From IMG/VR virus record IMGVR_UViG_2877263951_000002: 16,767 bases of DNA, one strand, 5' to 3'. The position numbers and the translations under genes were made by a program. Below, piece after piece: positions 1,048 through 16,767 of this stretch (positions are counted from its first letter, which is position 1; each line of letters begins with the position of its first letter). The notes below the pieces were generated by a model. That model saw nothing but the letters and a program-made list of their open reading frames with translations, was not told where the DNA came from and searched no databases. This DNA is from a virus. Its lineage: Duplodnaviria > Heunggongvirae > Uroviricota > Caudoviricetes.

Positions 1048-1061
1048 TTGATTTTAATCAG
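1048..1061 (+). promoter_or_regulatory. putative FNR binding site upstream of dcuC
   Basis: TTGATtttaATCAg, 9/10 match to FNR consensus TTGAT-N4-ATCAA, centred about 95 nt upstream of the dcuC ATG. dcuC is known to be anaerobically induced via FNR. Site not experimentally verified here. Confidence 0.4.
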
Positions 1062-1149
1062 CATTCATCGCCAATTTATTGGGCATATTTTTTCCTTAAG
1101 CTTTAGGAAGTTTTTATTATTTACTTTGGGCCTGGAGACAGGAAAAATT

Positions 1150-2535
1150 ATGCTGACATTCATTGAACTCCTTATTGGGGTTGTGGTTATTGTGGGTGTG
1201 GCTCGCTACATCATTAAAGGGTATTCCGCCACTGGTGTGTTATTTGTCGGTGGCCTGTTATTGCTGATTATCAGTGCCATTATGGGGCACAAAGTGTTAC
1301 CGTCCAGCCAGGCTTCAACAGGCTACAGCGCCACGGATATCGTTGAATACGTTAAAATATTACTAATGAGCCGCGGCGGCGACCTCGGCATGATGATTAT
1401 GATGCTGTGTGGCTTTGCCGCTTACATGACCCATATCGGCGCGAATGATATGGTGGTCAAGCTGGCGTCAAAACCATTGCAGTATATTAACTCCCCTTAC
1501 CTGCTGATGATTGCCGCCTATTTTGTTGCTTGTCTGATGTCACTGGCCGTCTCTTCCGCAACCGGTCTGGGTGTTTTGCTGATGGCAACCCTGTTTCCGG
1601 TGATGGTAAACGTTGGTATCAGTCGTGGCGCAGCAGCTGCCATTTGTGCCTCCCCGGCGGCGATTATTCTCGCACCGACTTCAGGGGATGTGGTGCTGGC
1701 GGCGCAGGCTTCCGAAATGTCGCTGATTGACTTCGCCTTCAAAACGACGCTGCCTATCTCAATTGCTGCAATTATCGGCATGGCGATCGCCCACTTCTTC
1801 TGGCAACGTTATCTGGATAAAAAAGAGCACATCTCTCATGAAATGTTAGATGTCAGTGAAATCACCACCACTGCCCCCGCGTTTTATGCCATTTTGCCGT
1901 TCACGCCGATCATCGGTGTACTGATTTTTGACGGTAAATGGGGTCCGCAATTACACATCATCACTATTCTGGTGATTTGTATGCTGATTGCCTCCATTCT
2001 GGAGTTCCTCCGCAGCTTTAATACCCAGAAAGTTTTCTCTGGTCTGGAAGTGGCTTATCGCGGGATGGCAGATGCGTTTGCTAACGTGGTGATGCTGCTG
2101 GTTGCCGCTGGGGTATTCGCTCAGGGGCTTAGCACCATCGGCTTTATTCAAAGTCTGATTTCTATCGCTACCTCGTTTGGTTCGGCGAGTATCATCCTGA
2201 TGCTGGTATTGGTGATTCTGACCATGCTGGCGGCAGTCACGACCGGTTCAGGCAATGCGCCGTTTTATGCGTTTGTTGAGATGATCCCGAAACTGGCGCA
2301 CTCTTCCGGCATTAACCCGGCGTATTTGACTATCCCGATGCTGCAGGCGTCAAACCTGGGTCGTACCCTATCACCCGTTTCTGGCGTAGTCGTTGCGGTT
2401 GCCGGGATGGCGAAAATCTCACCATTTGAAGTCGTAAAACGCACCTCGGTGCCGGTGCTTGTTGGGCTAGTGATTGTTATCGTTGCTACAGAGCTGATGG
2501 TGCCAGGAACGGCAGCAGCGGTCACAGGCAAGTAA
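1150..2535 (+). CDS. dcuC: anaerobic C4-dicarboxylate transporter DcuC
   Basis: ATG at 1150 preceded by AGGA (1140-1143), stop TAA 2533-2535, 461 aa, very hydrophobic multi-pass membrane protein. Recognised as E. coli DcuC; divergent from pagP and convergent with dpiA as in E. coli K-12. The 34-residue upstream extension in the ORF track is not used. Confidence 0.92.
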   Translation: MLTFIELLIGVVVIVGVARYIIKGYSATGVLFVGGLLLLIISAIMGHKVLPSSQASTGYSATDIVEYVKILLMSRGGDLGMMIMMLCGFAAYMTHIGANDMVVKLASKPLQYINSPYLLMIAAYFVACLMSLAVSSATGLGVLLMATLFPVMVNVGISRGAAAAICASPAAIILAPTSGDVVLAAQASEMSLIDFAFKTTLPISIAAIIGMAIAHFFWQRYLDKKEHISHEMLDVSEITTTAPAFYAILPFTPIIGVLIFDGKWGPQLHIITILVICMLIASILEFLRSFNTQKVFSGLEVAYRGMADAFANVVMLLVAAGVFAQGLSTIGFIQSLISIATSFGSASIILMLVLVILTMLAAVTTGSGNAPFYAFVEMIPKLAHSSGINPAYLTIPMLQASNLGRTLSPVSGVVVAVAGMAKISPFEVVKRTSVPVLVGLVIVIVATELMVPGTAAAVTGK

Positions 2536-2543
2536 ATAGTAAT

Positions 2544-2570
2544 GCCGGAGGCAAGTTTCCTCCGGCTTTA
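2544..2570. terminator. putative bidirectional intrinsic terminator between convergent dcuC and dpiA
   Basis: Inverted repeat GCCGGAGG (2544-2551) / CCTCCGGC (2559-2566) with a 7-nt loop, followed by TTTA; sits between the dcuC stop (2533-2535) and the dpiA stop (2576-2578). Confidence 0.45.
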
Positions 2571-2575
2571 TCATG

Positions 2576-2917
2576 TCACCCACTGTGGTATATGCGTTGT
2601 GGTCTGCCAACTTTGCCGTGAACAATTTCAGCAATAATCAGATGGCGGCTGGCGCAATATTCAAGATAACGCCTGGCAGTGGTGCGGCTGATGGTCAGTG
2701 CCTGCGCCACCGTTTCTGCCGTATGTTGCACACCAGGCTCTTTAAACAGTTTTCGCACCGCGTTTAGCGTCAAGGGGTCAATGCCGGTCGGCAGTTCGTC
2801 TTTGGGTTCACCGCGAGCATAGGCATTAAACATCTCATCAATTTGCTTCTGGCTGGCGCTATCAATACTTTCCAGCATATGTTTACGCTGGCGGAAACGG
2901 GTTAGCGTTTGCCCCAG
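2576..2917 (-). pseudogene. dpiA: 3' half of response regulator gene dpiA (citB), interrupted by Mu-type insertion
   Basis: Minus-strand frame open from 2917 to stop TGA 2576-2578 (113 codons: LGQTLTRFRQRKHMLESIDSASQKQIDEMF...RRYLEYCASRHLIIAEIVHGKVGRPQRIYHSG), recalled as the C-terminal DNA-binding half of DpiA. The frame closes 3-4 codons into the Mu-type end (stop at 2927-2929). N-terminal receiver half is not in the window. Confidence 0.8.
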
Positions 2918-3088
2918 TGTATTGATTCACTTGAAGTACGAAAAAACCGGGAGAACATTGGATTATTCGGGATCTGATGGGATTAGATTTGGTGGGGCTT
3001 GCAAGCCTGTAGTACAAATTTTAGGCGTTAACCAATGAAACGCGAAAGATAGTAAAAAATTGCTTTTGTTTCATTGAAAAAACGAAAA
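2918..3088 (+). other. Mu-type attL with transposase end-binding sites (L1 2923-2944; L3-like 3067-3088)
   Basis: 2923-2944 TGATTCACTTGAAGTACGAAAA and 3067-3088 TGTTTCATTGAAAAAACGAAAA both fit the MuA end-site consensus TGNTTCAYTNNAARYRCGAAAA; 3036-3049 contains an ACGCGAAAG half-site-like motif. Confidence 0.7.
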
Positions 3089-3254
3089 ACAAAAACACTA
3101 TAAATCATTTCAATCATAGCTTCAAAAAACGTTCAAAACCGATAACAACCAGGCTGTCACCAAATGACTCATATCACAAATCAGCTCATGCCGTTTAGGT
3201 ATGTTACATGTGTGATTATGTGAGGTGAAGTATGTTTTAGCTGGCTCATGGTTG

Positions 3255-3764
3255 TTATACGGCTTTTTTCGCATCTTGTGGTTCCAACAAAGGAGCTACA
3301 GGCTCTTCCTGTTTATGAACACCATACATTGACAAAATCTCTTGGCGAGTTTCTGGAGGTAATTTATGCAGCGCCAAAGCTGTTTGTAGTGTTTGGCGAT
3401 CAATACCCAGCGTTGCCAATAGGGTGTCAACGGAGATGGAGGGGCGTTCTTGCATTAATCCGGAAAGCCCATATTTAGCCATGTTTAGCTCTATCTCTCG
3501 GACTTCATTTTCTCCTAGTTTATTGATTAACAGGGAGAACATTTTCAATGTATCAGCATTCATTTCTTCGATAGCAATTTTTTGCATAGCCGGTATTGCC
3601 GGGATATATTCAACCCCAGGCCCGCGACGCCCTTCTTGTGAACGCTTCGGCCATCCTTCTTTCTTTGCTCGTTTATGCACCCCCTGTATTGTCCCTGGCA
3701 TTCCATCCAGTTCAGTAATTTGTTTGGGTGTCATCCACTGGTTTATCTCATTTGCGCTTTTCAT
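3255..3764 (-). CDS. c: Mu/D108-type repressor (Repc-like)
   Basis: ATG 3762-3764, stop TAA 3255-3257, 169 aa. The C-terminal region (...RQEILSMYGVHKQEEPVAPLLEPQDAKKAV) closely resembles the Mu repressor C-terminus (...KEILSKYGIHEQES...KKAV) and the N-terminus has the MPG..GVH.RA...GW.KR winged-helix motif shared with MuA and Mu Repc. Divergent from Mu in detail, so D108-like by inference. Confidence 0.8.
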   Translation of the reverse strand: MKSANEINQWMTPKQITELDGMPGTIQGVHKRAKKEGWPKRSQEGRRGPGVEYIPAIPAMQKIAIEEMNADTLKMFSLLINKLGENEVREIELNMAKYGLSGLMQERPSISVDTLLATLGIDRQTLQTALALHKLPPETRQEILSMYGVHKQEEPVAPLLEPQDAKKAV

Positions 3765-3917
3765 AAACTAAGTTTACCAGATTTATCTATATAAAAATCA
3801 ATGGATTACAAAATAAACCACATTAACTGATATAAACCAGTTTTGTTTATTTGGTAATGTATAAAACAGATAATCAAGACGAATTATTTGTTTTGGTAAC
3901 CCTTTATCATACGCAAT
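3765..3917. promoter_or_regulatory. early operator/promoter region between divergent c and ner (expected Pe/Pc and repressor operators)
   Basis: 153-bp AT-rich spacer between divergently transcribed repressor and ner, the position of O1-O3, the IHF site and Pe/Pc in Mu. Individual operators were not delimited from sequence alone. Confidence 0.45.
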
Positions 3918-4172
3918 ATGGTTGGTGTGCGAAAGATGAGTAACGATTGGCATCGGGCCGACGTGATTGCGGCCCTCAAAAAAACAGGAACCCCTCTGGC
4001 AAAATTGTCCAGACGTTCAGGTTATTCAACCGGGACGCTTGCAAATGCATTAGTCAGGCCATGGCCTAAAGGTGAACGCATTATTGCTGACGCCTTAAAC
4101 ATGAAACCTGAGGAAATTTGGCCTAGTAGATATCTAAGGGATCACAATGAGAGAGTGGATATCAGCAATTGA
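3918..4172 (+). CDS. ner: Ner-like DNA-binding early regulator
   Basis: ATG 3918 (alternative ATG at 3936), stop TGA 4170-4172. [13 protein letters not shown]...TLANAL...WPKGE.IIA.AL...PE.IWPSRY matches the Mu Ner family along its length. The 3' end overlaps the A start by 26 nt. Confidence 0.75.
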
Positions 4173-5781
4173 ATGCATGGGTTTATCTGGTTTACCTGGT
4201 TCATTAATGGGGGTTCACAAAAGAGCTCAGAGAGAAGGATGGCTCAAGAGAAGAAGAGAAGGAATTAGAGGGGTTGCTTACGAATACCATATATCTTCTC
4301 TTCCTAACATTGCTCGAGCTGAAGTTTTGCTCCAACAAGGAAAATTTAAAACCAGTCAGGGATGTTTTGAAATCGCCCGCCCCACGCTGGAAGCTCATGA
4401 TTATGATCGTGAGGCACTATGGAGCAAATGGGATAAAGCCAGCGATTCCCAGCGCAGCCTGGCTGAAAAATGGTTGCCCTCAATTCAGGCCACAGACGAA
4501 ATGCTGAACCAGGGGATTTCAACGAAAACGGCTTTTGCGACCGTTGCAGGGCATTACCAGGTCAGCGCATCCACTTTGCGGGACAAGTATTACCAGGTAC
4601 AGAAGTTTGCGAAGCCTGACTGGGCGGCTGCACTTGTTGATGGACGTGGAGCATCCCGTCGCAATGTTCACAAAAGTGAATTTGACGAGGATGCCTGGCA
4701 GTTTCTGATTGCAGATTATCTGCGACCGGAAAAACCCGCCTTCCGCAAATGTTATGAGCGTCTGGAACTGGCAGTCCGCGAGCATGGCTGGAGTATTCCC
4801 TCCCGTGCCACGGCCTTTCGCCGGATTCAGCAACTGGACGAGGCAATGGTTGTTGCCTGTCGTGAAGGTGAACATGCACTGATGCATCTGATACCGGCAC
4901 AGCAGCGAACTGTGGAACACCTGGACGCCATGCAGTGGATCAACGGCGACGGTTATCTGCATAACGTCTTTGTACGCTGGTTTAACGGTGATGTGATCCG
5001 TCCGAAAACATGGTTCTGGCAGGATGTGAAAACCCGAAAAATTCTGGGCTGGCGCTGCGATGTGAGCGAGAACATTGATTCAATTCGCCTCTCGTTCATG
5101 GATGTTGTGACTCGCTACAGTATCCCGGAGGATTTTCACATCACCATTGATAACACCCGTGGTGCTGCGAATAAATGGCTGACGGGAGGCGCGCCCAATC
5201 GCTACCGCTTTAAGGTAAAAGAGGACGATCCAAAAGGACTGTTTTTACTGATGGGTGCGAAAATGCACTGGACAAGCGTTGTTGCCGGTAAAGGCTGGGG
5301 CCAGGCAAAACCTGTTGAACGTGCTTTCGGTGTTGGTGGGCTTGAGGAATACGTTGATAAGCATCCGGCACTGGCTGGCGCATATACGGGGCCAAATCCG
5401 CAGGCAAAACCTGATAACTATGGCGACCACGCTGTTGATGCAGAGCTGTTTCTGAAAACCTTTGCCGAAGGTGTGGCGATGTTCAATGCCAGAACAGGCC
5501 GTGAAACAGAAATGTGCGGGGGCAAACTCTCGTTTGATGATGTTTTCGAGCGTGAATACGCCAGAACGATTGTGCGTAAGCCAACCGAAGAACAAAAACG
5601 GATGCTGTTACTGCCTGCCGAGGCGGTGAACGTTTCACGCAAAGGCGAGTTTACGCTTAAAGTTGGCGGCTCCCTTAAAGGCGCGAAAAACGTTTATTAC
5701 AACATGGCATTAATGAATGCCGGAGTGAAAAAAGTTGTGGTCAGATTTGATCCACAGCAGTTACACAGCACGGTTTATTGA
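4147..5781 (+). pseudogene. A: Mu-type transposase A, 3'-truncated (544 of about 663 codons); stop codon supplied by IS600 terminus
   Basis: ATG 4147 with AAGGGA 6-7 nt upstream; protein near-identical to recalled MuA over residues about 60-544 (...[12 protein letters not shown]) and divergent in the first about 60 residues. After codon 544 the sequence becomes the IS600 end (TGA at 5779-5781). Confidence 0.9.
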
Positions 5782-5842
5782 GATAGCCTGAGTTTAACGG
5801 ACACTCCTTCCTGAAATAGAATGGCATCAGAAGGAGCTAATA

Positions 5843-6145
5843 ATGAGCAGAAAAACCCGACGTTACTCTAAAGAGTTCAAAGCCGAAGCTGTCAGAACGG
5901 TTCTTGAAAATCAACTTTCGATCAGTGAAGACGCTTCCCGATTATTCCTTCCTGAAGGCACTTTAGGACAATGGGTTACCGCCGCCAGAAAAGGGCTCGG
6001 TACTCCTGGTTCCCGCACGCTGGCTGAACTGGAATCTGAAATTCTGCAACTGCGTAAGGCGTTAAATGAAGCTCGCCTTGAGCGAGATATATTAAAAAAA
6101 GCAACAGCGTATTTTGCACAGGAGTCGCTGAAAAATACGCGTTAA
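5843..6145 (+). CDS. IS600 OrfA (transposase N-terminal HTH subunit)
   Basis: ATG 5843 with GGAG 8 nt upstream; 100 aa MSRKTRRYSKEFKAEAV...; contains the slippery run at 6094-6100. Confidence 0.85.
   Translation: MSRKTRRYSKEFKAEAVRTVLENQLSISEDASRLFLPEGTLGQWVTAARKGLGTPGSRTLAELESEILQLRKALNEARLERDILKKATAYFAQESLKNTR
6094..6100 (+). other. programmed -1 ribosomal frameshift heptamer A_AAA_AAA(G) of IS600 copy 1
   Basis: Zero-frame codons AAA AAA at 6095-6100 in orfA; the -1 frame is open from 6100 through the orfB ATG at 6181, as expected for OrfAB fusion transposase of IS3-family elements. Confidence 0.6.
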
Positions 6146-6180
6146 TCGAACAATGGCGACAACAATTTCCCATTGAAGCG

Positions 6181-6999
6181 ATGTGTCAGGTATTTGGTGT
6201 ATCCAGGAGCGGTTATTACAACTGGGTACAGCATGAACCCTCAGACAGAAAACAAAGTGATGAACGGCTAAAACTGGAGATTAAGGTGGCACATATCCGC
6301 ACTCGCGAAACATATGGAACCCGGCGGCTCCAGACGGAGCTGGCAGAGAATGGCATCATCGTTGGTCGTGACCGACTGGCATGTCTTCGTAAGGAGCTGA
6401 GGCTACGCTGTAAGCAGAAACGCAAGTTCAGAGCGACTACGAACCCGAACCACAATCTGCCAGTTGCGCCAAATCTGCTGAACCAGACGTTCGCTCCTAC
6501 AGCACCAAATCAGGTCTGGGTGGCGGACCTGACGTATGTTGCCACACAGGAGGGATGGTTGTACCTCGCTGGCATCAAAGATGTTTATACGTGCGAAATT
6601 GTCGGCTACGCCATGGGAGAGCGCATGACAAAAGAGCTGACAGGTAAAGCCCTGTTTATGGCGCTCAGGAGCCAGCGCCCACCTGCCGGGCTAATCCACC
6701 ACTCTGATCGAGGTTCACAGTACTGCGCATACGATTACCGGGTCATACAGGAGCAGTCTGGTCTGAAAACATCAATGTCGCGTAAAGGTAACTGTTACGA
6801 CAACGCTCCGATGGAAAGCTTCTGGGGAACGCTGAAAAATGAGAGCCTGAGCCACTATCGTTTTAATAACCGGGATGAAGCCATCTCAGTAATACGGGAA
6901 TACATTGAGATTTTCTACAATCGTCAGCGTCGTCACTCTCGTCTGGGGAATATCTCCCCGGCAGCCTTCAGGGAAAAATATCATCAGATGGCTGCTTAA
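6181..6999 (+). CDS. IS600 OrfB (DDE catalytic domain; normally expressed as OrfAB fusion)
   Basis: 272-aa ORF in the -1 frame relative to orfA; contains typical IS3-family DDE region (...WVADLTYV..., ...HSDRGSQY..., ...NCYDNAPMESFWGTLK...). Confidence 0.85.
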   Translation: MCQVFGVSRSGYYNWVQHEPSDRKQSDERLKLEIKVAHIRTRETYGTRRLQTELAENGIIVGRDRLACLRKELRLRCKQKRKFRATTNPNHNLPVAPNLLNQTFAPTAPNQVWVADLTYVATQEGWLYLAGIKDVYTCEIVGYAMGERMTKELTGKALFMALRSQRPPAGLIHHSDRGSQYCAYDYRVIQEQSGLKTSMSRKGNCYDNAPMESFWGTLKNESLSHYRFNNRDEAISVIREYIEIFYNRQRRHSRLGNISPAAFREKYHQMAA

Positions 7000-7042
7000 A
7001 AAAAGAACAAATGGTAGTGTCCGCTATTGCCAGTACACCTCA

Positions 7043-7241
7043 ATTCTTTGGCATTTTTTACCTCGTTACGCGCGTCTGTGGCTTTGCCAACGGATACTTC
7101 CGCGTGCGCACGAGTGAACCAGTGCGTGGCAACGTCTTCCTCCACAACATGACGGCCTTTAACAAACTCGCGCCGAGAACCGTCGGGAAGCGTGAGCACA
7201 AACGGGGTATGTACGTGTATTACTGCATCATTTTTTGCCAT
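7043..7241 (-). pseudogene. small phage gene downstream of the major capsid gene, 3'-truncated by IS600 copy 1
   Basis: ATG 7239-7241 with AAGGA 8 nt upstream; 66 phage-encoded codons (MAKNDAVIHVHTPFVLTLPDGSRREFVKGRHVVEEDVATHWFTRAHAEVSVGKATDARNEVKNAKE), then the frame runs into IS600. Function unknown. Confidence 0.4.
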
Positions 7242-7282
7242 CGGGTCATCCTTAATGGCCCCGCCAGGGGGCCATGTGGCTG

Positions 7283-8224
7283 TTAAATGCCATCAACGTA
7301 CGAAATGGTTTCTTTGTACACTGGCTCGACTGCACCCAGCTTGCCGTAGTAAGTGACGATCTGATACAGACCGCGATACTGCACCGGCACGCTCTGAAGC
7401 GGAACCAGCGGGTAGCGGACGTATTTTTTATCGTTGGTGTACGCAACCATGCGATCCTTATTCCCCACACCACGGCCTTTCAGCCATTTAACCGCGCGGA
7501 TATTCAGCGGAACACCGTTCTGGTGATAGCTGATGGTGTTGGTCTGAAGGTTCGTCAACAGGGACTGGTTACCTGCAGATGAAACGATGATGCTGGACAA
7601 CAGAGCAAACTGCTCAGGCGGGATCAGCAAATCACGCGGAACCACAGAGTAACCAGAAGCGGCCCACGCATCAGACAGCACCTGGTTAATGCTTGCGCGG
7701 ATTTCGTCCGGTGTTGAGGTTGCCCACGTTTTGGCAGCGTTGTTGACAGGCACGCCGTCCAGGGTAACAAGGCCTTTCAGGTTTAATGCGGAATCGCCAA
7801 CATATACCTGTTCATCGTTATCCATCTGCCATTTCAGTTGCATACCGTCATACTTCTGCGTATCAATCGGGCGGCCGACCTGCTGAGCAGCCTGCAATTC
7901 TATGACCGTCCAGCCAAGTTCCATCCCCCACAGGTTCAGCGGGTTACCGGATTTGCCGATATCCACGTTCACGCCAGCAATAGCGGTTGAGTCTTTGCCT
8001 ACCCAGTTTTTTCCATTCGGATTTGCGCCAGTACCCGCAGCGGCGAAGCTGGTATTCGTCCAGCTGGAAATGTCATCTGCGATGGAGGCGTCTTCACGCA
8101 GTTGAATATCGCGGCTCCAGGTGTACCCCACCAGTGGCAGGTTCAGCGTCTGGTCGAGTCTCTCCAGCTCCCCGATGAGAAAGGCACCAGAGCTGTCAAC
8201 GGTTGCCTGATCAAAAGTAATCAT
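7283..8224 (-). CDS. phage major capsid protein (DUF2184-like family by recall)
   Basis: ATG 8222-8224 with AAGGAA 7-8 nt upstream, stop TAA 7283-7285, 313 aa; position after scaffold-like and small genes in a head module; sequence recalled as a prophage major capsid family. Family assignment unverified. Confidence 0.65.
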   Translation of the reverse strand: MITFDQATVDSSGAFLIGELERLDQTLNLPLVGYTWSRDIQLREDASIADDISSWTNTSFAAAGTGANPNGKNWVGKDSTAIAGVNVDIGKSGNPLNLWGMELGWTVIELQAAQQVGRPIDTQKYDGMQLKWQMDNDEQVYVGDSALNLKGLVTLDGVPVNNAAKTWATSTPDEIRASINQVLSDAWAASGYSVVPRDLLIPPEQFALLSSIIVSSAGNQSLLTNLQTNTISYHQNGVPLNIRAVKWLKGRGVGNKDRMVAYTNDKKYVRYPLVPLQSVPVQYRGLYQIVTYYGKLGAVEPVYKETISYVDGI

Positions 8225-8368
8225 TCGTCTGTTCCTTAAATCTTCCAGGAAATTTCTGCATTGCCGTCAGCATCACCGGCACCTGTGAATTCAGCGTTGG
8301 TCAGCACCACGTTTTTGCCACTGACTGACGTGGACATGAATCCACCCAGAGGCACTTTGATGGATTCA

Positions 8369-8725
8369 TCAGTGGAGATCGCCTTTTTTGATAGTGCTGG
8401 CATCAAAATCAGAACCGAGATTAACGGTCACGTAGCCACGCTTCATGGCGTCGCCCGGGAAGTTCTTGCCTGTTCCCACCTGGCGAACCATGTCCGGCTG
8501 CGACGTGGTCGGATAAGGGCGCACGTAGATCCCCTTCACCTTGTCTGCGGTATCACCATCTGCCAGCGGCACGAAAAAACCGTCATCATCGTATTTACCA
8601 GCCAGGCCATAGGCAGCGAAGGCGTTATCGGATTTAAGGACCACCGGTTCGACGGTTAAGTCCTGCGGGCGAGAGACAGCCCCGGCAATGCCAACAGGCA
8701 TCCGGTACAGAAATACATTATTCAT
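8369..8725 (-). CDS. small phage head-module protein (possible decoration/structural protein)
   Basis: ATG 8723-8725 with AAGGG upstream, stop TGA 8369-8371, 118 aa; lies between scaffold-like gene and capsid gene. Function inferred only from position. Confidence 0.4.
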   Translation of the reverse strand: MNNVFLYRMPVGIAGAVSRPQDLTVEPVVLKSDNAFAAYGLAGKYDDDGFFVPLADGDTADKVKGIYVRPYPTTSQPDMVRQVGTGKNFPGDAMKRGYVTVNLGSDFDASTIKKGDLH

Positions 8726-8728
8726 TTT

Positions 8729-9172
8729 TTACCCTTTACGGTTTGCCCAGAATTCAGCGTTTTGTTTGTTCAGGGAAGCGATACTGGTCATGCCCATGTT
8801 TAGGCGCTGTGCATCGCCGGTGGTGGCGCGGGTGTTTCGCCCTTTGGCAACCTCAGACACGGCATTAAACGCCATGTCGACCGATTGTTTCGGTAATTTG
8901 CGGATATCCGCATCACCGACTATCTGGCGAACCAGCGTTTTGTCAGCAGAAGCCAGAACCTCGCGTTTGAACGCGGTCGGTTTCATCTTACGGCTCAGAT
9001 CGATACCCGGAACGATAACTTCGGCACGCCAGGCTGAGTCACCAGTAATCGTGGTTTCCTCTTCATCGTCCTCGCCGTCACCGGTCGGATTATCGTCAGG
9101 CTTATTATCGTTATCGCCCGTGGCATTTCTTTCCAGCTTAGCCAGCAGGGCTTTCAGTAATGTTTTGAGGTC
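8729..9172 (-). pseudogene. 3' part of phage scaffold/maturation-like gene interrupted by IS600 copy 2
   Basis: Minus-strand frame is open from the IS600 boundary (9172) to stop TAA 8729-8731 with no upstream start of its own (...DLKTLLKALLAKLERNATGDNDNKPDDNPTGDGEDDEEETTITGDSAWRAEVIVPGIDLSRKMKPTAFKREV...). It continues in phase with the 10437-11216 part across the 3-bp duplication. Confidence 0.6.
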
Positions 9173-9236
9173 TGAGGTAGCCTGAGTTTAACGGACACTC
9201 CTTCCTGAAATAGAATGGCATCAGAAGGAGCTAATA

Positions 9237-9539
9237 ATGAGCAGAAAAACCCAACGTTACTCTAAAGAGTTCAAAGCCGAAGCTGTCAGAACGGTTCTTG
9301 AAAATCAACTTTCGATCAGTGAAGGCGCTTCCCGATTATCTCTTCCTGAAGGCACTTTAGGACAATGGGTTACCGCCGCCAGAAAAGGGCTCGGTACTCC
9401 TGGTTCCCGCACGCTGGCTGAACTGGAATCTGAAATTCTGCAACTGCGTAAGGCGTTAAATGAAGCTCGCCTTGAGCGAGATATATTAAAAAAAGCAACA
9501 GCGTATTTTGCACAGGAGTCGCTGAAAAATACGCGTTAA
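9237..9539 (+). CDS. IS600 OrfA
   Basis: 100 aa; differs from copy 1 OrfA at 3 residues (Q6, G30, S35 versus R, D, F). Confidence 0.85.
   Translation: MSRKTQRYSKEFKAEAVRTVLENQLSISEGASRLSLPEGTLGQWVTAARKGLGTPGSRTLAELESEILQLRKALNEARLERDILKKATAYFAQESLKNTR
9488..9494 (+). other. programmed -1 frameshift heptamer A_AAA_AAA(G) of IS600 copy 2
   Basis: Same position as in copy 1 (offset 3394). Confidence 0.6.
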
Positions 9540-9574
9540 TCGAACAATGGCGACAACAATTTCCTATTGAAGCG

Positions 9575-10393
9575 ATGTGTCAGGTATTTGGTGTATCCAG
9601 GAGCGGTTATTACAACTGGGTACAGCATGAACCCTCAGACAGAAAACAAAGTGATGAGCGGCTAAAACTGGAGATTAAGGTGGCACATATCCGCACTCGC
9701 GAAACATATGGAACCCGGCGGCTCCAGACGGAGCTGGCAGAGAATGGCATCATCGTTGGTCGTGACCGACTGGCACGTCTTCGTAAGGAGCTGAGGCTAC
9801 GCTGTAAGCAGAAACGCAAGTTCAGAGCGACTACGAACCCGAACCACAATCTGCCAGTTGCGCCAAATCTGCTGAACCAGACGTTCGCTCCTACAGCACC
9901 AAATCAGGTCTGGGTGGCGGACCTGACGTATGTTGCCACACAGGAGGGATGGTTGTACCTCGCTGGCATCAAAGATGTTTATACGTGCGAAATTGTCGGC
10001 TACGCCATGGGAGAGCGCATGACAAAAGAGCTGACAGGTAAAGCCCTGTTTATGGCGCTCAGGAGCCAGCGCCCACCTGCCGGGCTAATCCACCACTCTG
10101 ATCGAGGTTCACAGTACTGCGCATACGATTACCGGGTCATACAGGAGCAGTTTGGTCTGAAAACATCAATGTCGCGTAAAGGTAACTGTTACGACAACGC
10201 TCCGATGGAAAGCTTCTGGGGAACGCTGAAAAATGAGAGCCTGAGCCACTATCGTTTTAATAACCGGGATGAAGCCATCTCAGTAATACGGGAATACATT
10301 GAGATTTTCTACAATCGTCAGCGTCGTCACTCTCGTCTGGGGAATATCTCCCCGGCAGCCTTCAGGGAAAAATATCATCAGATGGCTGCTTAA
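9575..10393 (+). CDS. IS600 OrfB
   Basis: 272 aa; differs from copy 1 OrfB at 2 residues (R versus C; F versus S). Confidence 0.85.
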   Translation: MCQVFGVSRSGYYNWVQHEPSDRKQSDERLKLEIKVAHIRTRETYGTRRLQTELAENGIIVGRDRLARLRKELRLRCKQKRKFRATTNPNHNLPVAPNLLNQTFAPTAPNQVWVADLTYVATQEGWLYLAGIKDVYTCEIVGYAMGERMTKELTGKALFMALRSQRPPAGLIHHSDRGSQYCAYDYRVIQEQFGLKTSMSRKGNCYDNAPMESFWGTLKNESLSHYRFNNRDEAISVIREYIEIFYNRQRRHSRLGNISPAAFREKYHQMAA

Positions 10394-10436
10394 AAAAAGA
10401 ACAAATGGTAGTGTCCGCTATTGCCAGTACACCTCA

Positions 10437-11216
10437 GTCATCATCACTGTCGCCGGTTGGATCTCCGCCCATCTCTGGTGCTTTGTCCGGTAGTGGTTGC
10501 TGCGGGGACAGGTTGATGTTGAGATTAACGCCCTGCGGCAAATCCCCCTCATCTCCTGTAACCGATGCGGGAGCCGACTCCACCAGTTCGTTCATGGTGT
10601 CGGCATCTCCTGTCTTGATGGCCGCACGCATGCGGTTCCACCAGTTTTTCTTTTGATTTGCCATTGTGTCTCTGTCTCCAATTGCACAACGATTTCCGGC
10701 TCTGCCTTTAGGGACAAGAGCCACATGGTTTCCGGTAATATCGACCTGCTCGGCTTTACCTGGCTCGGTCTGCTCGTACTCCGCGTCATAGCCGCACGAC
10801 ACTTCGCGCAGGCCATCTTCGATAAGCTGAATGGCGCTTTCGTCTTTGACGATAAGGTCAGCCAGCATCAAATCAGACTGCTCACCCGTCCCGCGCCGGA
10901 CATTCTGGAGGTGCCCGACAGCAAGCACTTTCCAGTTCTCGGGATTTACCAGCCGCACATTCCCGTTTTCATCTTCAGGATGCAGGATCGTGATGCTCAT
11001 CCCTTCGAATGAGGCAAGCGTGGCCGGATGGAATACCTGCTCAGGAGAACGCGTGACGACTATTTCAACGAACTTATCGGGTTTCAGTTTTGGCAGGTCA
11101 TCAGCACCATAGAGCTGCTTACCTGTTCGTCCTATCGGCACGTCTTTGCACAGCAACGAGCCGTCAGCCAGGCGGTATCGGGTTTCCCCGAGCCTGGTCT
11201 CAAAAAAGTATTTCAT
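10437..11216 (-). pseudogene. 5' part of phage scaffold/maturation-like gene (DUF2213-like by recall) interrupted by IS600 copy 2
   Basis: ATG 11214-11216; 260 codons ending ...PTGDSDDD, where the last D codon (GAC) is the target duplication and the stop TGA (10434-10436) is the IS600 terminus. Confidence 0.6.
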
Positions 11217-11219
11217 GGG

Positions 11220-12002
11220 TTATGCTGCCCTTTTCATTGCGAATGGAACGCGAACAAACACGATCTCTTTATAGCAGCGGCAGTTTGGCAGCTCGCCCGC
11301 GTGGCCGGTCATGCCGTCCAAAGTTGGAGGTGAATCCCAGCGGACGAATTTACCTTTCATGTGATCGTGGGAATCTCGGACATCGCCATCATCGGCTGTA
11401 CGCCAAATATAACCATCCGAGCCAATAGCTATCGCTCGGGCCATATCCAGCGCGCCCGTTGCTCTTCCCAGTTCCGTTCGGGCAATCAGATCGGCCCTAG
11501 ACTTAGCAACATCGCCGGTAGATGCAATCTCTTTAGCAAACTGCTCCGCCCGACCACCGGTGACAACAGCCTCTATCGCTTTGTTCTGGATGTCGTACAC
11601 CCTGTCTGCGGCCTCGAGAGGCAGAGATTTGATGTACTTGACCTGTTCGGCGATGATGGATTGCATCACCTGGCCCACAGGAGCGCTTTCCACAAGATTG
11701 CGGAGCTCGCGACTGATGTTCTTGCTGTGTTGCCGCCAAACTTTCTCGTTCTGCCGGGTTAGGTCCGCAGTAAAGTTTTCCGCGACCTTTGTCGCCCAGG
11801 GGGTGATGATTTCACTGTAACGCTCCAGCGCCGCAATAATTTCCGTGATACTGTCATTTGAACCATCGTAGCGACCATTTACGATGTCTCCGACCGCCCT
11901 CGCTATCCTGCGTAGGCTGGTTCGATACCGGATTTCCGCCTGACGGCTCCTGCGGTTCGTCATCAGGTTCGCCGATGCCGGGCGGCGCTTCATCTTCGGC
12001 AT
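11220..12002 (-). CDS. phage head morphogenesis protein (Mu F / SPP1 gp7-like minor head protein)
   Basis: ATG 12000-12002 (alternative ATGs at 11993 and 11963), stop TAA 11220-11222, 260 aa; C-terminal region with ...HAGELPNCRCY... typical of the Mu F-like family; lies directly after the portal gene. Start uncertain; overlaps portal 3' end by up to 149 nt. Confidence 0.65.
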   Translation of the reverse strand: MPKMKRRPASANLMTNRRSRQAEIRYRTSLRRIARAVGDIVNGRYDGSNDSITEIIAALERYSEIITPWATKVAENFTADLTRQNEKVWRQHSKNISRELRNLVESAPVGQVMQSIIAEQVKYIKSLPLEAADRVYDIQNKAIEAVVTGGRAEQFAKEIASTGDVAKSRADLIARTELGRATGALDMARAIAIGSDGYIWRTADDGDVRDSHDHMKGKFVRWDSPPTLDGMTGHAGELPNCRCYKEIVFVRVPFAMKRAA

Positions 12003-13320
12003 TCTCGATGTCCTCGTTGGTAATGGATGCCCCTATGCCGGTTACGTCAGAATTTTCTCGCAAATCAGTCATAGCGGCTTTCAGTGTCATCAGACCATCA
12101 CCCAGCGCCGTACTGATTGCGTTGGTGGTGTTTAACGCCACCGTTGAGCGATCGACATCAGACATTTGCCAGAGCGGGTTAAACTCAAACGTGAAATCGT
12201 CCGGCAGCGGCTTGCCAAGTTCCGAACGATGCATGATGTCCAGTATCCGCCGCACCGGAAGACGTAAACGCCTCTCCTGCAACGAACTGATGCGATCGTA
12301 ATAGTTGGCAAGGTCTGCATCACCGGTAGAAAATCCTTTCGGGGACTGTCCGAACAACCGCACCAGTGGGATACCAACAGCGCCACTAATCTGTTCTGCA
12401 AACTGCGAAAGGATGTCATCCAGACCACTGAAGCTGTACTGATGGGTTTCAAACTTATCCCGCGAGTCCATGAGCGTCATGCCTTCATTACTCTGGAACT
12501 GTCGAATCAGGTCGATATTCTTCAGCAACGCTTCATACGCAGGACCACCAAGTGCGATAAGCTCGCGTAGCTTCTCCACGCTGTAGGTACGCAAATGCGC
12601 CTTGTAGACCAGCTGCGCCGCGCCGACAGTAGCGCTGTCGAACGCGGTAAGACGATCCCAGATACGCTCTACAACCGACATTCCCCATTCGTTCTCGGTC
12701 ATCTTCTGCTGAAATGGCAACGTGACGCCATCAAAGCGAATCAGGCGACTGTGATGAATGCGCCAGGCAGGAATTCCCGTTGCTGTGGTCACCACATCGT
12801 AAAACTCAGGTTTACCCAGGTCCGGCCCCATATCTTTAATGCGGCGGGTCAGTGCCGGGTCGACCATCCAGCGGTCGAGCGGGAGAATCCCCTTAAACTT
12901 GCCCTTACCGATGGTTTCGGGTCGCAGCGGGGTCATTGGTGCCTGCCCCTCAATCATGATGAAACCCACCGCGCCGCCGTAGAGGCGCGACCATTTCAGC
13001 ACGTCATTCAGCGCATCCCAGATTTGCAACTCATCCAGTTGTGATTCGAGAATGCCACGATCTTTTGCATCAATTTCCGAAGTGATGCGAATGCCTTTGC
13101 GGGTCATATCATCCGGGATAGCATCGACTGCTTCGCCGATGATCCAGGATGAACGATAGGACCATTCCACCAGCATGCGGTTACGACTGGTGAAATTAGC
13201 CCGGTAGGTGGATGCTGAGTGCTGGTTAGGTGTCTGCATCCCTACTCGGGCAATAAAATTCTCATAACCATCAGCTGTGGCCTGCACAGTTCGCCGCAGG
13301 GCTTGTTTGTTTCGTGCCAT
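11854..13320 (-). CDS. phage portal protein (DUF1073-like by recall)
   Basis: ATG 13318-13320 overlapping the TerL stop (ATGA), stop TGA 11854-11856, 488 aa with acidic C-terminal tail; position between TerL and head morphogenesis gene. Confidence 0.7.
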   Translation of the reverse strand: MARNKQALRRTVQATADGYENFIARVGMQTPNQHSASTYRANFTSRNRMLVEWSYRSSWIIGEAVDAIPDDMTRKGIRITSEIDAKDRGILESQLDELQIWDALNDVLKWSRLYGGAVGFIMIEGQAPMTPLRPETIGKGKFKGILPLDRWMVDPALTRRIKDMGPDLGKPEFYDVVTTATGIPAWRIHHSRLIRFDGVTLPFQQKMTENEWGMSVVERIWDRLTAFDSATVGAAQLVYKAHLRTYSVEKLRELIALGGPAYEALLKNIDLIRQFQSNEGMTLMDSRDKFETHQYSFSGLDDILSQFAEQISGAVGIPLVRLFGQSPKGFSTGDADLANYYDRISSLQERRLRLPVRRILDIMHRSELGKPLPDDFTFEFNPLWQMSDVDRSTVALNTTNAISTALGDGLMTLKAAMTDLRENSDVTGIGASITNEDIENAEDEAPPGIGEPDDEPQEPSGGNPVSNQPTQDSEGGRRHRKWSLRWFK

Positions 13321-14053
13321 CAGGCCTGTCTCCCCAGCTGTTCCCAGATATCCAGCGATGTATCGATTGGCGCGAAGGCCATAATGAATGCATCAGCAAC
13401 GTTTGGTGACGGTATCTCGCGTTTTGCGAGGTCTTTTTTACTTTCGACCATCACACGTCCGTTACGGTCGAAATCACGATGAGGTGTTGTCAGTTCCAGT
13501 TTCAGCTTTTCAAGCAACGGACAACGAGAATCTATGCTGATCAGCTCATCCACAGGATACTGTTCTCCGTTGTTAATGGCGTTAAACGTATTTCTGAAAC
13601 GGTCAGCCACCATGCCTGAGCCTTAAGATTTGCGAAAAAGTCTTTGTTGGGGATGCCGTTGTACTCGTCATCTGGCTCATGCACACCAGCACCGGCGTTA
13701 AACCTCTGGTAATTCACACGTCGCGCGTATGCGTTCTCGCTCTTCCGGTCAGCGTTAATTTCAGAGAATTTAGCACCGGCAGACGCACCAACACCGATAG
13801 AGTCGTAAACAATATCTGCTTCACGCTCCAGCGCCGCCTGATAAGTACGCTGGCAGCTCTTCAGTAATTCATCTTCTTTGGCCTTCCATTCGTCGGCCCA
13901 GAAAACAACGGATCCGTGACGGTAAACGTTAGCGCACTTATCTGTACCACTGTCAGCCACGTCAAAGCCAATACGCTTTCTTCCACTGGGTTCGAAATTT
14001 AACGTTTTGTGCGCATCCACTGCGGCTTCTATCCAAGACAGTTTGATGATTGC
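13320..14053 (-). pseudogene. terminase large subunit, 3' (nuclease-domain) part; separated from its 5' part by IS2 and carrying a 1-bp frameshift near 13604-13612
   Basis: Two overlapping minus-strand frames: 14053-13544 (...NLKAQAWW LTVSEIR... stop 13541-13543) and 13622-13323 (...VADRFRNTFNAINNGEQYP...RVMVESKKDLAKREIPSPNVADAFIMAF..., stop TGA 13320-13322). Together they resemble a single TerL C-terminus. Confidence 0.7.
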
Positions 14054-14064
14054 TGGATTTGCCC

Positions 14065-14970
14065 CTATATTTCCAGACATCTGTTATCACTTAACCCATT
14101 ACAAGCCCGCTGCCGCAGATATTCCCGTGGCGAGCGATAACCCAGCGCACTATGCGGATGCCATTCGTTATAATGCTCGAACGCCTCTGCAAGGTTCTTT
14201 GCTGCCGTTAACCCGTCTGGTTTGGGCATGATACTGATGTAGTCACGCTTTATCGTTTTCACGAAGCTCTATGCTATTCCGTTACTCTCCGGACTCCGCA
14301 CCGCCGTGTTCTTCGGTTCAAGTCCCAACATCCGGGCGAACTGGCGTGTTTCATTAGCCCGGTAGCATGAACCATTATCCGTCAGCCACTCCACTGGAGA
14401 CGACGGAAGATCGTTGCCGAAGCGGCGTTCCACCGCTCCCAGCATGACGTCCTGTACTGTTTCACTGTTGAAGCCGCCGGTAGTCACCGCCCAGTGCAGT
14501 GCCTCACGATCACAGCAGTCCAGCGCGAACGTGACACGCAGTCTCTCTCCGTTATCACAGCAGAACTCGAACCCGTCAGAGCACCATCGCTGATTGCTTT
14601 CTTTCACGGCCACTCTGCCTGTATGTGCCCGTTTCGATGGCGGTACAGCAGGTTTTCGCTCAAGCAACAGCGCATTCTGGCGCATGAGCCGGTAAACACG
14701 TTTGGCATTGATCGCAGGCATACCATCAAGTTCTGCCTGTCTGCGAAGCAGCGCCCATACCCGACGATAACCATACGTGGGCAGCTCTCCGATAACATGG
14801 TGTATACGGAGAAGCACATCCGTATCATCAGTGTGACGACTGCGGCGGCCATCCATCCAGTCATCGGTTCGTCTGAGAATGACGTGCAACTGCGCACGCG
14901 ACACCCGGAGACAACGGCTGACTAAGCTTACTCCCCATCCCCGGGCAATAAGGGCGCGTGCGCTATCCAC
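14065..14970 (-). pseudogene. insD: IS2 insD (OrfB, DDE transposase domain) with in-frame TAG at 14269-14271
   Basis: GTG at 14968-14970 (the -1 frame entry point), frame open to TAG at 14269-14271 (233 codons), then the same frame continues for 67 more InsD-like codons to TAG at 14065-14067 (...[19 protein letters not shown]...NRCLEI). Recalled canonical InsD has Glu at this codon. Confidence 0.8.
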
Positions 14971-15293
14971 TTTTTTGCCCGTCCATATTCAACGGCTTCT
15001 TTGAGGAGTTCATTTTCCATCGTTTTCTTGCCGAGCAGGCGCTGGAGTTCTTTAATCTGCTTCATGGCGGCAGCAAGTTCAGAGGCAGGAACAACCTGTT
15101 CTCCGGCGGCCACAGCAGTAAGACTTCCTTCCTGGTATTGCTTACGCCAGAGAAATAACTGGCTGGCTGCTACACCATGTTGCCGGGCAACGAGGGAGAC
15201 CGTCATCCCCGGTTCAAAGCTCTGCTGAACAATTGCGATCTTTTCCTGTGTGGTACGCCGTCTGCGTTTCTCCGGCCCTAAGACATCAATCAT
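14928..15293 (-). CDS. insC: IS2 InsC (OrfA, HTH subunit)
   Basis: ATG 15291-15293, stop TAA 14928-14930, 121 aa [26 protein letters not shown]...; the 15 extra N-terminal residues in the ORF track are not used. Slippery heptamer A_AAA_AAG on minus strand at 14970-14976. Confidence 0.88.
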
Positions 15294-15384
15294 CTGTTCT
15301 CCAATGACTAGTCTAAAAACTAGTATTAAGACTATCACTTAAATAAGTGATACTGGTTGTCTGGAGATTCAGGGGGCCAGTCTA

Positions 15385-16079
15385 ATTGCCGCATCATCAT
15401 CAGACTCCGGAACGCCCTCATACACATGTTTAAAACCATCCGGATCACGGCGTCGCGCCGCGTCGATAACCTTAAGCATGGTGTCAGACAGAAACGGATT
15501 TTCGTCATAGTTAATTTTGCGGATGAGAGTGCCTTCGGGCGGATCAACAACGAAGTTGCGCCAGACGAAATCAGTAACAAGTCCGGGGTTGAATATGAAC
15601 CAGCATTCCGAACCCTCTTTACGGATCGTTGGCTCCAGAATTTTCCACTGGTATTCCGTCAGTGCGTGGGCTTCTTCCAGCCACAACATATCGATCCCCT
15701 CCAGTGACTTAATTTCTTCGATGTTGCGCCATAATCCATAAAAAACAAATTCCGAGCCAGTAACCCGGTTAATGATTTTGTTGTTCAGAATACGGAAACG
15801 GTGCCGCAGACCAAACCTGTCTATCTGAATTTTGAGCAGGGTATACACCGACTCTTCGATTTTATTCTGGATCTGACGGGCACAACAAAAACGCAGGGTG
15901 TATTTATTCGACAGAAATATGGCAATGCCAGCGGCATCCCATGATTTTGACGATGACCGACCACCATAAAGCACTTTGTTACGTGCCCGCATAGTCCAGA
16001 AACTACGTAAAGCCGGATTCAGCGTCGGTTTGGATGTCAGAGTAGAAGTCATTGAGGTCACGCTCTCCATTGCCATCAT
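15385..16079 (-). pseudogene. terminase large subunit, 5' (ATPase-domain) part, interrupted by IS2
   Basis: Frame open from candidate ATGs at 16091/16079/16076/16070/16052 (16079 chosen: AGGT 5 nt upstream) down to the IS2 boundary; contains a Walker A-like motif (VLYGGRSSSKS). The frame continues in phase into 14053 after removing IS2 and one copy of ATTGC. Start is uncertain; the TTG at 16160 in the ORF track is not used. Confidence 0.65.
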
Positions 16080-16767
16080 CAATACCTGCATCACGGCGAA
16101 GACGATCAGCCTCCAGAGACACCTTATCAGTGGCGGCCTTGCGGTAGGCTGTATCAGCAAATATTTTTCCTACCGTCGCAAGCGTGCCAACGATGGACTC
16201 AATACGAACTGTATTGCGCATCATTGCTTTCTCGGCGGCGCTGATATTTTCAATCAGCATCTTCCTTTCCTGGTCCCCATTAGCATCTTCCAGCGACACC
16301 AACCACCGACCAATATTCTCTGCAGCGACAAGGTTGTTAGCACGAAGGCGAAATAATTCGTCCTCGAGCGTCAACGCTTTAGCGTCCTCTATCACCTCAT
16401 CTTTGAGCAGAAGGCGACGGGCATAACCACCGTGTTTTAATGCCTGCTGGTTACCGGGTTGGAATGGGTTAGTCGGGGGATCGGTACGCATTCCGCGTAT
16501 CGGTTTCGTATCCGGTGTAGATTCTGTTTTTAGTTGCGTACTTTTTTGTGTAAGGCCAGTAATGGCAGGCTTTCTGCTGGTACGCACTTTCCTTTTTTGC
16601 GTACCATTTTTGCAAACCTGCGTACCGCCACTGCGTGCCCAATCAAGCTTTTTGGCCCTCTTCCTGATAGCCCCTTCTGTAACGCCGTATTTCTCGCCTA
16701 TATCACGGAGGCTAAGGACTCCGGCCCGGTATGCCGATTCGATGGCCTCCCAGTCCGGTTTTGCCAT
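16003..16767 (-). CDS. putative terminase small subunit (HTH DNA-binding N-terminus)
   Basis: ATG is the last three bases of the window (16765-16767), so the true start could lie further upstream; stop TAG 16003-16005; 254 aa; immediately upstream of and overlapping TerL; N-terminus (MAKPDWEAIESAYRAGVLSLRDIGEKYGVTEGAIRKRAKK) looks like an HTH. Assignment by position and weak recall. Confidence 0.5.
   Translation of the reverse strand: MAKPDWEAIESAYRAGVLSLRDIGEKYGVTEGAIRKRAKKLDWARSGGTQVCKNGTQKRKVRTSRKPAITGLTQKSTQLKTESTPDTKPIRGMRTDPPTNPFQPGNQQALKHGGYARRLLLKDEVIEDAKALTLEDELFRLRANNLVAAENIGRWLVSLEDANGDQERKMLIENISAAEKAMMRNTVRIESIVGTLATVGKIFADTAYRKAATDKVSLEADRLRRDAGIDDGNGERDLNDFYSDIQTDAESGFT

Follow-up and report, generated by a model that had tools for sequence, protein, structure and literature searches.

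A left-end remnant of a Mu-family prophage in dpiA, bounded by IS600, carried by Shigella flexneri

Genes and features of the locus

The window analysed here is the whole 16,767-nucleotide stretch of the IMG/VR virus record IMGVR_UViG_2877263951_000002. It starts with host genes, namely pagP (minus strand), dcuC (plus strand) and then a minus-strand ORF of DpiA, which is interrupted by a Mu-type left end. The phage end is followed by the repressor c, ner and a truncated transposase gene (A'), and these by a copy of IS600 and the head genes of a second, non-Mu prophage. The principal features, with the evidence for each, are as follows.

1048..2535, plus strand: dcuC of the host, annotated as dcuC in the matching E. 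coli genomes; PF03606 (DcuC)
2544..2566, both strands: bidirectional terminator-like hairpin of the host in the dcuC/dpiA intergenic region; consensus scan, a pattern match only
2576..2917, minus strand: dpiA remnant, codons 114-226 and stop; translation identical to residues 114-226 of E. coli C DpiA
2913..2917, plus strand: CCCAG, presumed Mu target pentamer, single copy, read directly from the sequence; the second copy would lie outside the window
2918..3254, plus strand: Mu-type left end (attL), beginning with the terminal TG; 96.2% identity to Mu 1-338
2923..2944, plus strand: MuA end-binding site L1, TGATTCACTTGAAGTACGAAAA; 0 mismatches to the 22-mer consensus, equivalent to Mu 6-27
3027..3048, plus strand: MuA end-binding site L2, right half GAAACGCGAAAG; core consensus match at 3037-3048
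3067..3088, plus strand: MuA end-binding site L3, TGTTTCATTGAAAAAACGAAAA; 1 mismatch to the 22-mer, equivalent by position to Mu 151-172
3255..3764, minus strand: repressor c, 169 aa, intact; PF02316, E 4.5e-12
3765..3917, no strand: AT-rich control region separating c and ner; DNA unlike that of Mu or D108 (blastn)
3918..4172, plus strand: ner, 84-aa ORF, 78 aa from the second ATG; PF13693, E 5e-29
4147..5781, plus strand: truncated transposase A', 544 aa of about 663; PF02316, PF09039, PF02914 (E 1e-134)
5779..7042, plus strand: IS600 copy 1, 1264 bp; no target duplication, flanks TAT and ATT
7043..9172, minus strand: head genes of the second, non-Mu prophage (81-aa ORF, DUF2184 major capsid, cement protein)
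9173-10436: IS600 copy 2, 1264 bp; 3-bp duplication GTC/GTC
14054-15384: IS2 in the second prophage; duplication ATTGC

The dcuC gene is intact and convergent with dpiA; its ORF encodes 495 aa from the TTG at 1048, and 461 aa as called in the assemblies. The hairpin between the two genes has an 8-bp stem with seven GC pairs. The dpiA remnant consists of 113 codons and a stop, exactly the C-terminal portion that the initial annotation had read from it, and its frame ends three codons inside the phage DNA. By Pfam search, the remnant retains the HTH effector domain (PF20714, HTH_64, E 4e-49) and lacks the receiver domain (PF00072), so that the 226-aa two-domain ORF is not present. An Rfam scan of the window returned no families at the gathering threshold, and the promoter and terminator scan gave counts no higher than in shuffled sequence.

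The junction in dpiA

In a megablast search with window positions 2300-3300 as the query against 5,426 complete E. coli genomes, the host homology covers only query positions 1-618 (window 2300-2917) in 5,417 of the genomes, where it is annotated as dcuC and dpiA. The dpiA/Mu junction is found in none of the 5,426 genomes, and none covers 80% or more of the query. The uninterrupted dpiA of E. coli C reads ...GTTTGCCCCAG followed by CCGTTCATAGG at the junction and diverges from the window precisely at 2917/2918, where the window reads ...GTTTGCCCCAG followed by TGTATTGATTCAC (also given as ...GTTTGCCCCAG followed by TGTATTGATTCACTTGAAG). In the alignments with Mu (AF083977) and D108 (GQ357916), window position 2918 is paired with the first nucleotide of either phage, and the terminal 5'-TG is present exactly where the host DNA ends. 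The alignment of 2918-3254 contains 13 differences in 338 columns (96.2% identity) against Mu, compared with 77.6% identity to D108. The initial annotation had placed the cut in the dpiA frame at 2917 and the start of a Mu-type terminus at 2918, and had considered the host locus disrupted; each of these readings is borne out by the alignments.

The published 22-bp MuA end-site consensus, TGNTTCANTNNAARYRCGAAAR, was scanned across the 16.8 kb window, with 200 shuffles as a control. There are exactly two matches, at 2923-2944 (0 mismatches) and at 3067-3088 (1 mismatch); these are the two sites proposed in the initial annotation and they correspond to L1 and L3. Shuffled sequence contained 0.22 matches on average, with two matches reached in 6 of the 200 shuffles. 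The 12-bp core consensus RAARYRCGAAAR also marks 3037-3048, the right half of L2, and the L2 core is identical in Mu, D108 and UMNF18. The mismatch in L3 is a T-to-A change at 3081 relative to Mu, and the D108 record annotates the homologous positions 156-172 as a transposase-binding site. The L1-L2 spacer, 82 bp as computed from the coordinates, is one base shorter than that computed from the Mu record because the A-run after L1 is one base shorter; in Mu, this spacer is bound by HU (PMC3145075). As recognized from sequence matches, L1, L2 and L3, the MuA end-binding sites of the left end, are thus all in place at the Mu spacing. The 22-mer scan detected no further MuA sites elsewhere in the window, which therefore does not contain a right end.

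The pentamer CCCAG that abuts the phage terminus fits the target preference of Mu, reportedly N-Y-S-R-N and at its best C-Y-S-R-G, and hints weakly at a Mu target site. Because the join falls on nucleotide 1 of Mu, the MuA end-binding sites are in place and the order of c, ner and A is canonical, the evidence supports transposition of a Mu-family element into dpiA between codons 113 and 114, with disruption of the gene.

The other side of this insertion was sought in several ways. Neither attR nor the 5' half of dpiA is located in the window or within 10 kb in any of the retrieved assemblies. The predicted attR junction, GCTTCA followed by CCCAG and CCGTTCATAGG (the last bases of Mu read ...CGTTTTTCGTGCGCCGCTTCA), has 0 matches in metagenome contigs, a collection where Shigella is rare. 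A protein search with DpiA residues 1-113 returned E. coli fragments only and none from Shigella, with the proviso that fragments may hide in full-length clusters, and a 127-aa fusion of DpiA(1-115) with attR is not among the matches of this N-terminal search. Two candidates for the missing half of dpiA were rejected: one, a 117-aa protein (P0014), is the product of a frameshifted dpiA whose dpiB-dpiA-dcuC locus is otherwise intact, and the other (P0030) has a substitution pattern that suggests a C-to-T converted (bisulfite-like) artefact. A search of the literature yielded no specific account of dpiA pseudogenes or of Mu transposase in S. flexneri.

The early region and its immunity type

Both BLAST and Pfam agree with the early layout proposed in the initial annotation, that is, leftward c (3255-3764) and rightward ner (3918-4172) and A (from 4147). 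At their N-termini, c and A are 40% identical over 60 aa (E 4e-16), which is a hallmark of the Mu family, and PF02316 is detected in both. Such similarity, described for Mu and D108, reflects a shared operator- and enhancer-binding domain. The control region between c and ner contains several inverted repeats (for example, 3805-3818/3845-3858) and, by its position, may have an operator function, given that the operators and the enhancer of Mu lie in the same place.

The DNA can be aligned to Mu only over 2918-3363 (Mu 1-447) and 4327-5780 (Mu 1511-2964, 97.7% identity). No blastn alignment to Mu or D108 was obtained for the intervening segment, 3364-4326, into which fall ner, the control region, the greater part of c and the first ~60 codons of A. 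The boundaries of this module fall where Mu and D108 also differ from each other. Among the nearest relatives is an intact Mu-like prophage of E. coli UMNF18; of the 5,426 E. coli genomes, this one alone matches the immunity region over its full length, at 89% DNA identity. The protein identities change abruptly along the element:

c, tblastn: Mu 35%, D108 28%
c, global alignment: Mu 38.5%, D108 31.9%, UMNF18 prophage 84.6%
Ner: Mu 58.7%, D108 53.5%, UMNF18 prophage 98.7%
A residues 1-76: Mu 47%, D108 51%, UMNF18 prophage 85.5%
A residues 77-543: Mu 98.1%, D108 97.9%, UMNF18 prophage 97.4%

Judging from these comparisons, the element is a mosaic that combines a Mu-like end, a UMNF18-like immunity module of its own type and a Mu-like A. 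The c-operator-ner-A(1-60) module, which is absent from all sequenced phages in the INPHARED set, represents a distinct immunity type that is neither that of Mu nor that of D108. The designation 'Mu/D108-type' given in the initial annotation thus applies to the end, where the likeness is to Mu, and to most of A, but does not extend to the immunity module.

The truncated transposase and the adjoining prophage

The similarity to Mu ends at window position 5780 (Mu 2964), and the Mu-derived DNA amounts to 2,861 bp (2918-5778). The stop codon of A', TGA, is formed by the first bases of IS600, so that the protein ends with ...LHSTVY whereas Mu continues with ...LHSTVYCYTLDG. A' keeps the domains I-alpha, I-beta and I-gamma, the DDE core and some of II-beta but lacks domain III altogether as well as the end of domain II, and the match to PF09299 (Mu transposase C-terminal) breaks off at profile position 50 of 61. 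There is, accordingly, no full-length A of about 663 aa with domain III at this locus. No MuB, other early genes, late genes or attR with R1-R3 were found in the window, and there is no similarity to Mu beyond 5780.

The region is a left-end stub rather than a prophage, consisting of attL, intact c, intact ner and a truncated A. The initial annotation, which described the end of a transposable prophage, had implied that an element of this kind continues to the right, whereas A is cut short by IS600 after residue 544 and what lies past IS600 comes from a different phage. For activity in vitro, the minimal MuA requires III-alpha in addition to I-beta, I-gamma and domain II, and the contacts with MuB and ClpX are made by domain III (PMC3145075); A' is, by this standard, presumably inactive. 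Because only one end is present, MuB is missing and A is shorter than the minimal active core, the remnant should be immobile, that is, unable to transpose, replicate or be induced.

A protein search with the lost portion of A (residues 545-662) returned 13 matches, none of them named Shigella; here, too, fragments may be concealed in full-length clusters. Two of the candidates for the lost C-terminus were inspected and rejected: the one with the best context, L022, proved to be a Mu whose A contains an IS10 end, and another (L023) is a normal Mu-like phage cut by the end of the contig.

The element that truncates A is one of two IS600 copies in the window that are 99.3% identical to each other; S. 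flexneri plasmids carry copies with 99.7-99.8% identity to these, among them one annotated as 'IS3-like element IS600 family transposase'. The characteristic domains of orfA (100 aa, HTH_Tnp_1) and orfB (272 aa, rve) were confirmed, the inverted repeats start with TGAG..., and the length of 1264 bp is the canonical one for IS600. Copy 2 is apparently a simple insertion, as expected from its 3-bp duplication. Copy 1 lacks such a duplication (flanks TAT and ATT) and is, for this reason, interpreted as the product of a rearrangement; the reciprocal joint is predicted to read IS600 followed by TAT and TGCTACACCCTGGAC.

The minus-strand genes to the right of copy 1 encode the DUF2184 major capsid protein, a cement protein, a DUF2213 protein, a Mu-F-like protein, the portal protein (DUF1073) and a PBSX-type terminase. 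This is the head module of a SEN34/vB_EcoM-689R2-like phage, of the ipaH type and non-transposable, an intact ipaH-carrying relative of which resides between ybhA and pgl in E. coli FDAARGOS_944. In the window, the second prophage is split by IS600 copy 2 and by IS2. One simple inversion in an E. coli-like gene order does not account for the way in which the head module is oriented relative to the ybhA-pgl prophage of FDAARGOS_944; in S. flexneri, the gene order around the ybhA-pgl prophage is scrambled by further IS elements.

Distribution

Assemblies related to the window were retrieved by means of the exact A' protein or of the 28-mer CGTTTGCCCCAGTGTATTGATTCACTTG, which spans the dpiA/Mu junction. 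The dpiA'::MuL and A'::IS600 junctions are identical in all 10 assemblies obtained in this way, and the dcuC-dpiA'-c-ner-A'-IS arrangement is found in each of the eight loci returned for the exact A' protein. A complete S. flexneri chromosome, CP026765.1, is 100% identical to the window over 15,781 nt in a BLAST comparison, and the other assemblies are 98.5-100% identical to the window, at least until the end of the locus or the start of IS600. In the assembly collection, 61 blocks index the exact 544-aa A' protein. Two genomes in the collection of species representatives, one of them titled Shigella flexneri SFBU1023, contain the junction 28-mer, and the stub element is contained in five IMG/VR contigs. 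The exact c and the exact ner are each present on at least 1,000 contigs that are named S. flexneri or 'MULTISPECIES Shigella' and include strain M90T.

The insertion is, therefore, old and widely carried in S. flexneri, with the lineage-wide spread judged from contig counts and source names, and the expectation of the initial annotation that it would be strain-specific does not hold. What does vary among the strains is IS600 copy 2 and the DNA beyond copy 1. One assembly is devoid of the DNA between the two IS600 copies, several do not have copy 2 and possess an intact 406-aa DUF2213 gene, and still others show different joins. Within the stub itself, truncated variants of c, 139-159 aa long, occur in some isolates, and attL of one contig contains an IS1 element.

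Origin of the remnant and alternative explanations

With high confidence, the best explanation of these observations is that the locus is an immobile left-end remnant of a Mu-family prophage that was truncated by IS600 and is vertically inherited in S. flexneri. Under this scenario, MuA-catalysed transposition would have brought a Mu relative into dpiA of an S. flexneri ancestor at CCCAG, between codons 113 and 114, splitting the receiver of DpiA from the HTH domain and thereby inactivating the response regulator. At a later stage, IS600 would have entered gene A after codon 544, and an IS600-mediated rearrangement, either recombination between two IS600 copies or intramolecular transposition, would have exchanged everything to the right for part of an ipaH-type SEN34-like prophage. 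The replaced DNA would include the end of A, B, the rest of the early genes, the late genes, attR and, apparently, the other half of dpiA; the missing Mu DNA may have been either deleted or relocated by an inversion. What remained, attL with L1-L2-L3, intact c, ner and a transposase without domain III, would have been inherited vertically as a lineage marker. The analysis establishes where the junctions lie, the identities, the truncation, the lack of a duplication at IS600 copy 1 and the distribution; in what order the events took place, that activity was lost and what became of the missing DNA are what we infer from these results.

It is conceivable, albeit unlikely, that the remnant was retained because it is useful, with c and ner conferring on S. 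flexneri immunity to Mu-like phages of the same type and/or with the loss of dpiA being advantageous. Both c and ner have their full length, as judged from the 169-aa and 78-aa proteins of an intact relative, their exact sequences dominate in at least 1,000 contigs, the neighbouring DNA is heavily decayed (IS600 twice, IS2) while these two genes are not, and related phages with a c that is 85-88% identical do exist. However, S. flexneri is a young clonal lineage, in which conservation does not require selection, some isolates have shortened c variants, and attL of one contig has the IS1 insertion; furthermore, 85% identity of c to the known intact relatives may not mean shared immunity.

A more specific version of this idea is improbable: expression of c and ner would make S. 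flexneri immune to a family of Mu-like phages of this immunity type, or else read-through from the repressor promoter would produce a DpiA HTH domain without the receiver, and either of these, or the loss of DpiBA, would have been adaptive and become fixed in the lineage. The c gene and the dpiA remnant are on the same strand, and the consensus scan detected no terminator-like hairpin between them; the candidate for the receiver-less HTH protein is a 100-aa ORF that starts from the ATG at 2878. DpiBA signalling controls citrate fermentation and is involved in the SOS induction triggered by beta-lactams. Should read-through occur, the DpiA HTH domain could bind DpiA targets constitutively.

There is very little chance that a complete Mu/D108-type prophage with the potential for induction starts here with its left end and continues rightward. 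The canonical attL-c-ner-A order and the intactness of c and ner are what such a prophage would display, but A ends at residue 544 at IS600, there is no B, kil, gam, mor, late genes or attR, the next 9.7 kb consist of IS elements and the opposite-strand SEN34-like head genes, and the truncation is identical in all related assemblies. Decay of an SfMu prophage was also considered and rejected, on account of the different immunity and of an end with only 78% identity to the D108 type. Finally, a chimeric assembly join or a mini-Mu/Mud insertion left by strain engineering can be practically dismissed, even though Mu derivatives are common genetic tools, IS-rich genomes misassemble and one unrelated Logan contig carries Mu with an IS10 end inside A, given that the same junction recurs in independent complete chromosomes and drafts from several projects, the immunity module differs from the c of laboratory Mu, there is no marker cassette, and the exact Mu terminus lies beside a pentamer that fits the target preference of Mu.

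Implications

The recognition of a remnant of a Mu-family prophage at this locus explains the pseudogene status of dpiA in S. flexneri and shows that Shigella can lose genes naturally through Mu-type transposition. It also provides two exact junctions that are diagnostic of the lineage, dpiA'/MuL at 2917/2918 and A'/IS600 at 5778/5779. For prophage predictors, the stub and the adjacent, unrelated head module are not to be taken as one phage. The only mildly novel feature is a distinct Mu-family immunity module, the third beside the Mu and D108 types, in which c, ner and domain I-alpha of A co-vary; the intact relatives that carry this module could be used to study the specificity of the repressor and the enhancer. 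In all other respects, this is ordinary prophage decay in an IS-rich pathogen genome, and current understanding is not challenged.

Comparison with known systems

The remnant resembles Mu (AF083977/NC_000929) most closely at its end, which is identical to the Mu terminus through L1 and has L1, L2 and L3 in the same positions, as well as in the leftward c followed by rightward ner and A and in residues 77-543 of A (98.1% identity). It differs from Mu in the size of c (169 aa versus 196 aa in Mu), in the segment 3364-4326 that has no DNA similarity to Mu, in the T-to-A change in L3 and the A-run that is one base shorter, and in the loss of everything that follows Mu position 2964.

With D108 and SfMu, which has D108-type immunity, the remnant shares most of A; past about codon 57, the DNA identity is 97-98%. 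In contrast, attL is 77.6% identical to that of D108, c shows from 28% (tblastn) to 31.9% (global alignment) identity, and the alignment of SfMu to the window starts only at 4315. Mu-like phages, exemplified by SfMu, infect S. flexneri, and remnants that hybridize to SfMu are found in most strains (PMC4406740). The predicted EcoRV fragment that contains A' is 3.8 kb long, near the common band of ~3.5-3.7 kb in the SfMu blot (PMC4406740), and the stub probably accounts for part of the 'SfMu remnant' hybridization in most S. flexneri strains.

The relatives with the same immunity module are the UMNF18 prophage, which is inserted in yphC and shares the 169-aa c (84.6%), Ner (98.7%) and A residues 1-76 (85.5%), and two IMG/VR UViGs of 35.7 and 36.3 kb (L030 and L031), with c 85-88% identical. 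Unlike the stub, these three are full-length elements at other chromosomal sites, with A of 662 aa, B, kil, gam and mor, and attL of UMNF18 differs from the window at more aligned positions than attL of Mu does. In its subsequent fate, the locus follows the pattern of IS-driven decay in Shigella, with IS600 and IS2 insertions flanked by duplications, IS600 without a duplication at a rearrangement joint, and variable DNA beyond. It departs from this pattern in that the primary event that inactivated the gene was the transposition of Mu rather than of an IS element.

The window and the neighboring head module

Three contigs from the IMG/VR viral collection (L024, L025 and L027) begin exactly at base 1 of the window, and this shared start suggests that the window itself derives from a contig made by prophage prediction, with a boundary placed in host sequence, within pagP. 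Such a contig would join host genes to the Mu stub and to an unrelated prophage, the latter with two insertions:

7043-9172 and 10437-16767, minus strand, part of the head module of a SEN34/vB_EcoM-689R2-like myovirus prophage
9173-10436, IS600 copy 2, with a clean 3-bp duplication, GTC
14054-15384, complete IS2 of 1331 bp, with the ends TGGATTTGCCCC... and ...GGGGCCAGTCTA and a 5-bp duplication, ATTGC

The Mu stub and the adjoining head module could be misread as one phage. E. coli FDAARGOS_944 has an intact relative of the head-module prophage (locus L032), which lies between ybhA and pgl and carries the T3SS effector gene ipaH, so that the prophage in the window appears to belong to the 'ipaH island' prophages of Shigella. 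Two of its genes are broken by insertion sequences, the PBSX-type terminase large-subunit gene by IS2 and the DUF2213/Pa193_gp24 head gene by IS600 copy 2. The latter insertion is truly strain-variable because it is absent from other S. flexneri assemblies (L018-L021, L024, L025 and L027), where the DUF2213 gene is intact and encodes 406 aa; in one more assembly (L004), the DNA between both IS600 copies is missing.

Decay and variation of the Mu stub

The same Mu stub has undergone additional, independent decay in a related contig (L028, IMG/VR UViG_2526164649_000013), where an IS1-family element of ~766 bp, with the 9-bp duplication CAACCAGGC, has inserted into attL, in the interval that separates L3 from the end of c, at the equivalent of window positions ~3146-3154. 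In the window, c and the dpiA remnant have the same orientation (2576-3764, minus strand), and no terminator-like hairpin was detected by consensus scan in the stretch that separates the stop of c (3255) from the dpiA' ORF. Read-through transcription from c into the HTH remnant of dpiA is conceivable from this arrangement, but inspection of the sequence revealed no good ribosome-binding site ahead of the dpiA' ATG at 2878.

In a Mu-like phage contig without a link to Shigella (L022, Logan SRR11783474), the start is an IS10 inside-end sequence, joined to A at ~Mu 2948, only ~16 bp away from the Shigella IS600 site in this gene. The contig probably stems from a Mu lysogen, either a laboratory or a natural one, into which Tn10/IS10 had inserted. 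The truncated A' and IS600 of the window are predicted to reside on a 3.8-kb EcoRV fragment (4158-7958), which may be the SfMu-hybridizing band of ~3.5-3.7 kb that is reported to be shared by most strains of S. flexneri (PMC4406740).

The immunity module

3364-4326, immunity module: N-terminal part of c, control region, ner and A codons 1-60

In the Mu stub of the window, c, Ner and domain I-alpha of A co-vary, and together they define a further Mu-family immunity type that has no characterized phage. Mu and D108 show no DNA relatedness to this module, whereas E. coli UMNF18 has an intact Mu-like prophage that is 89% identical to it.
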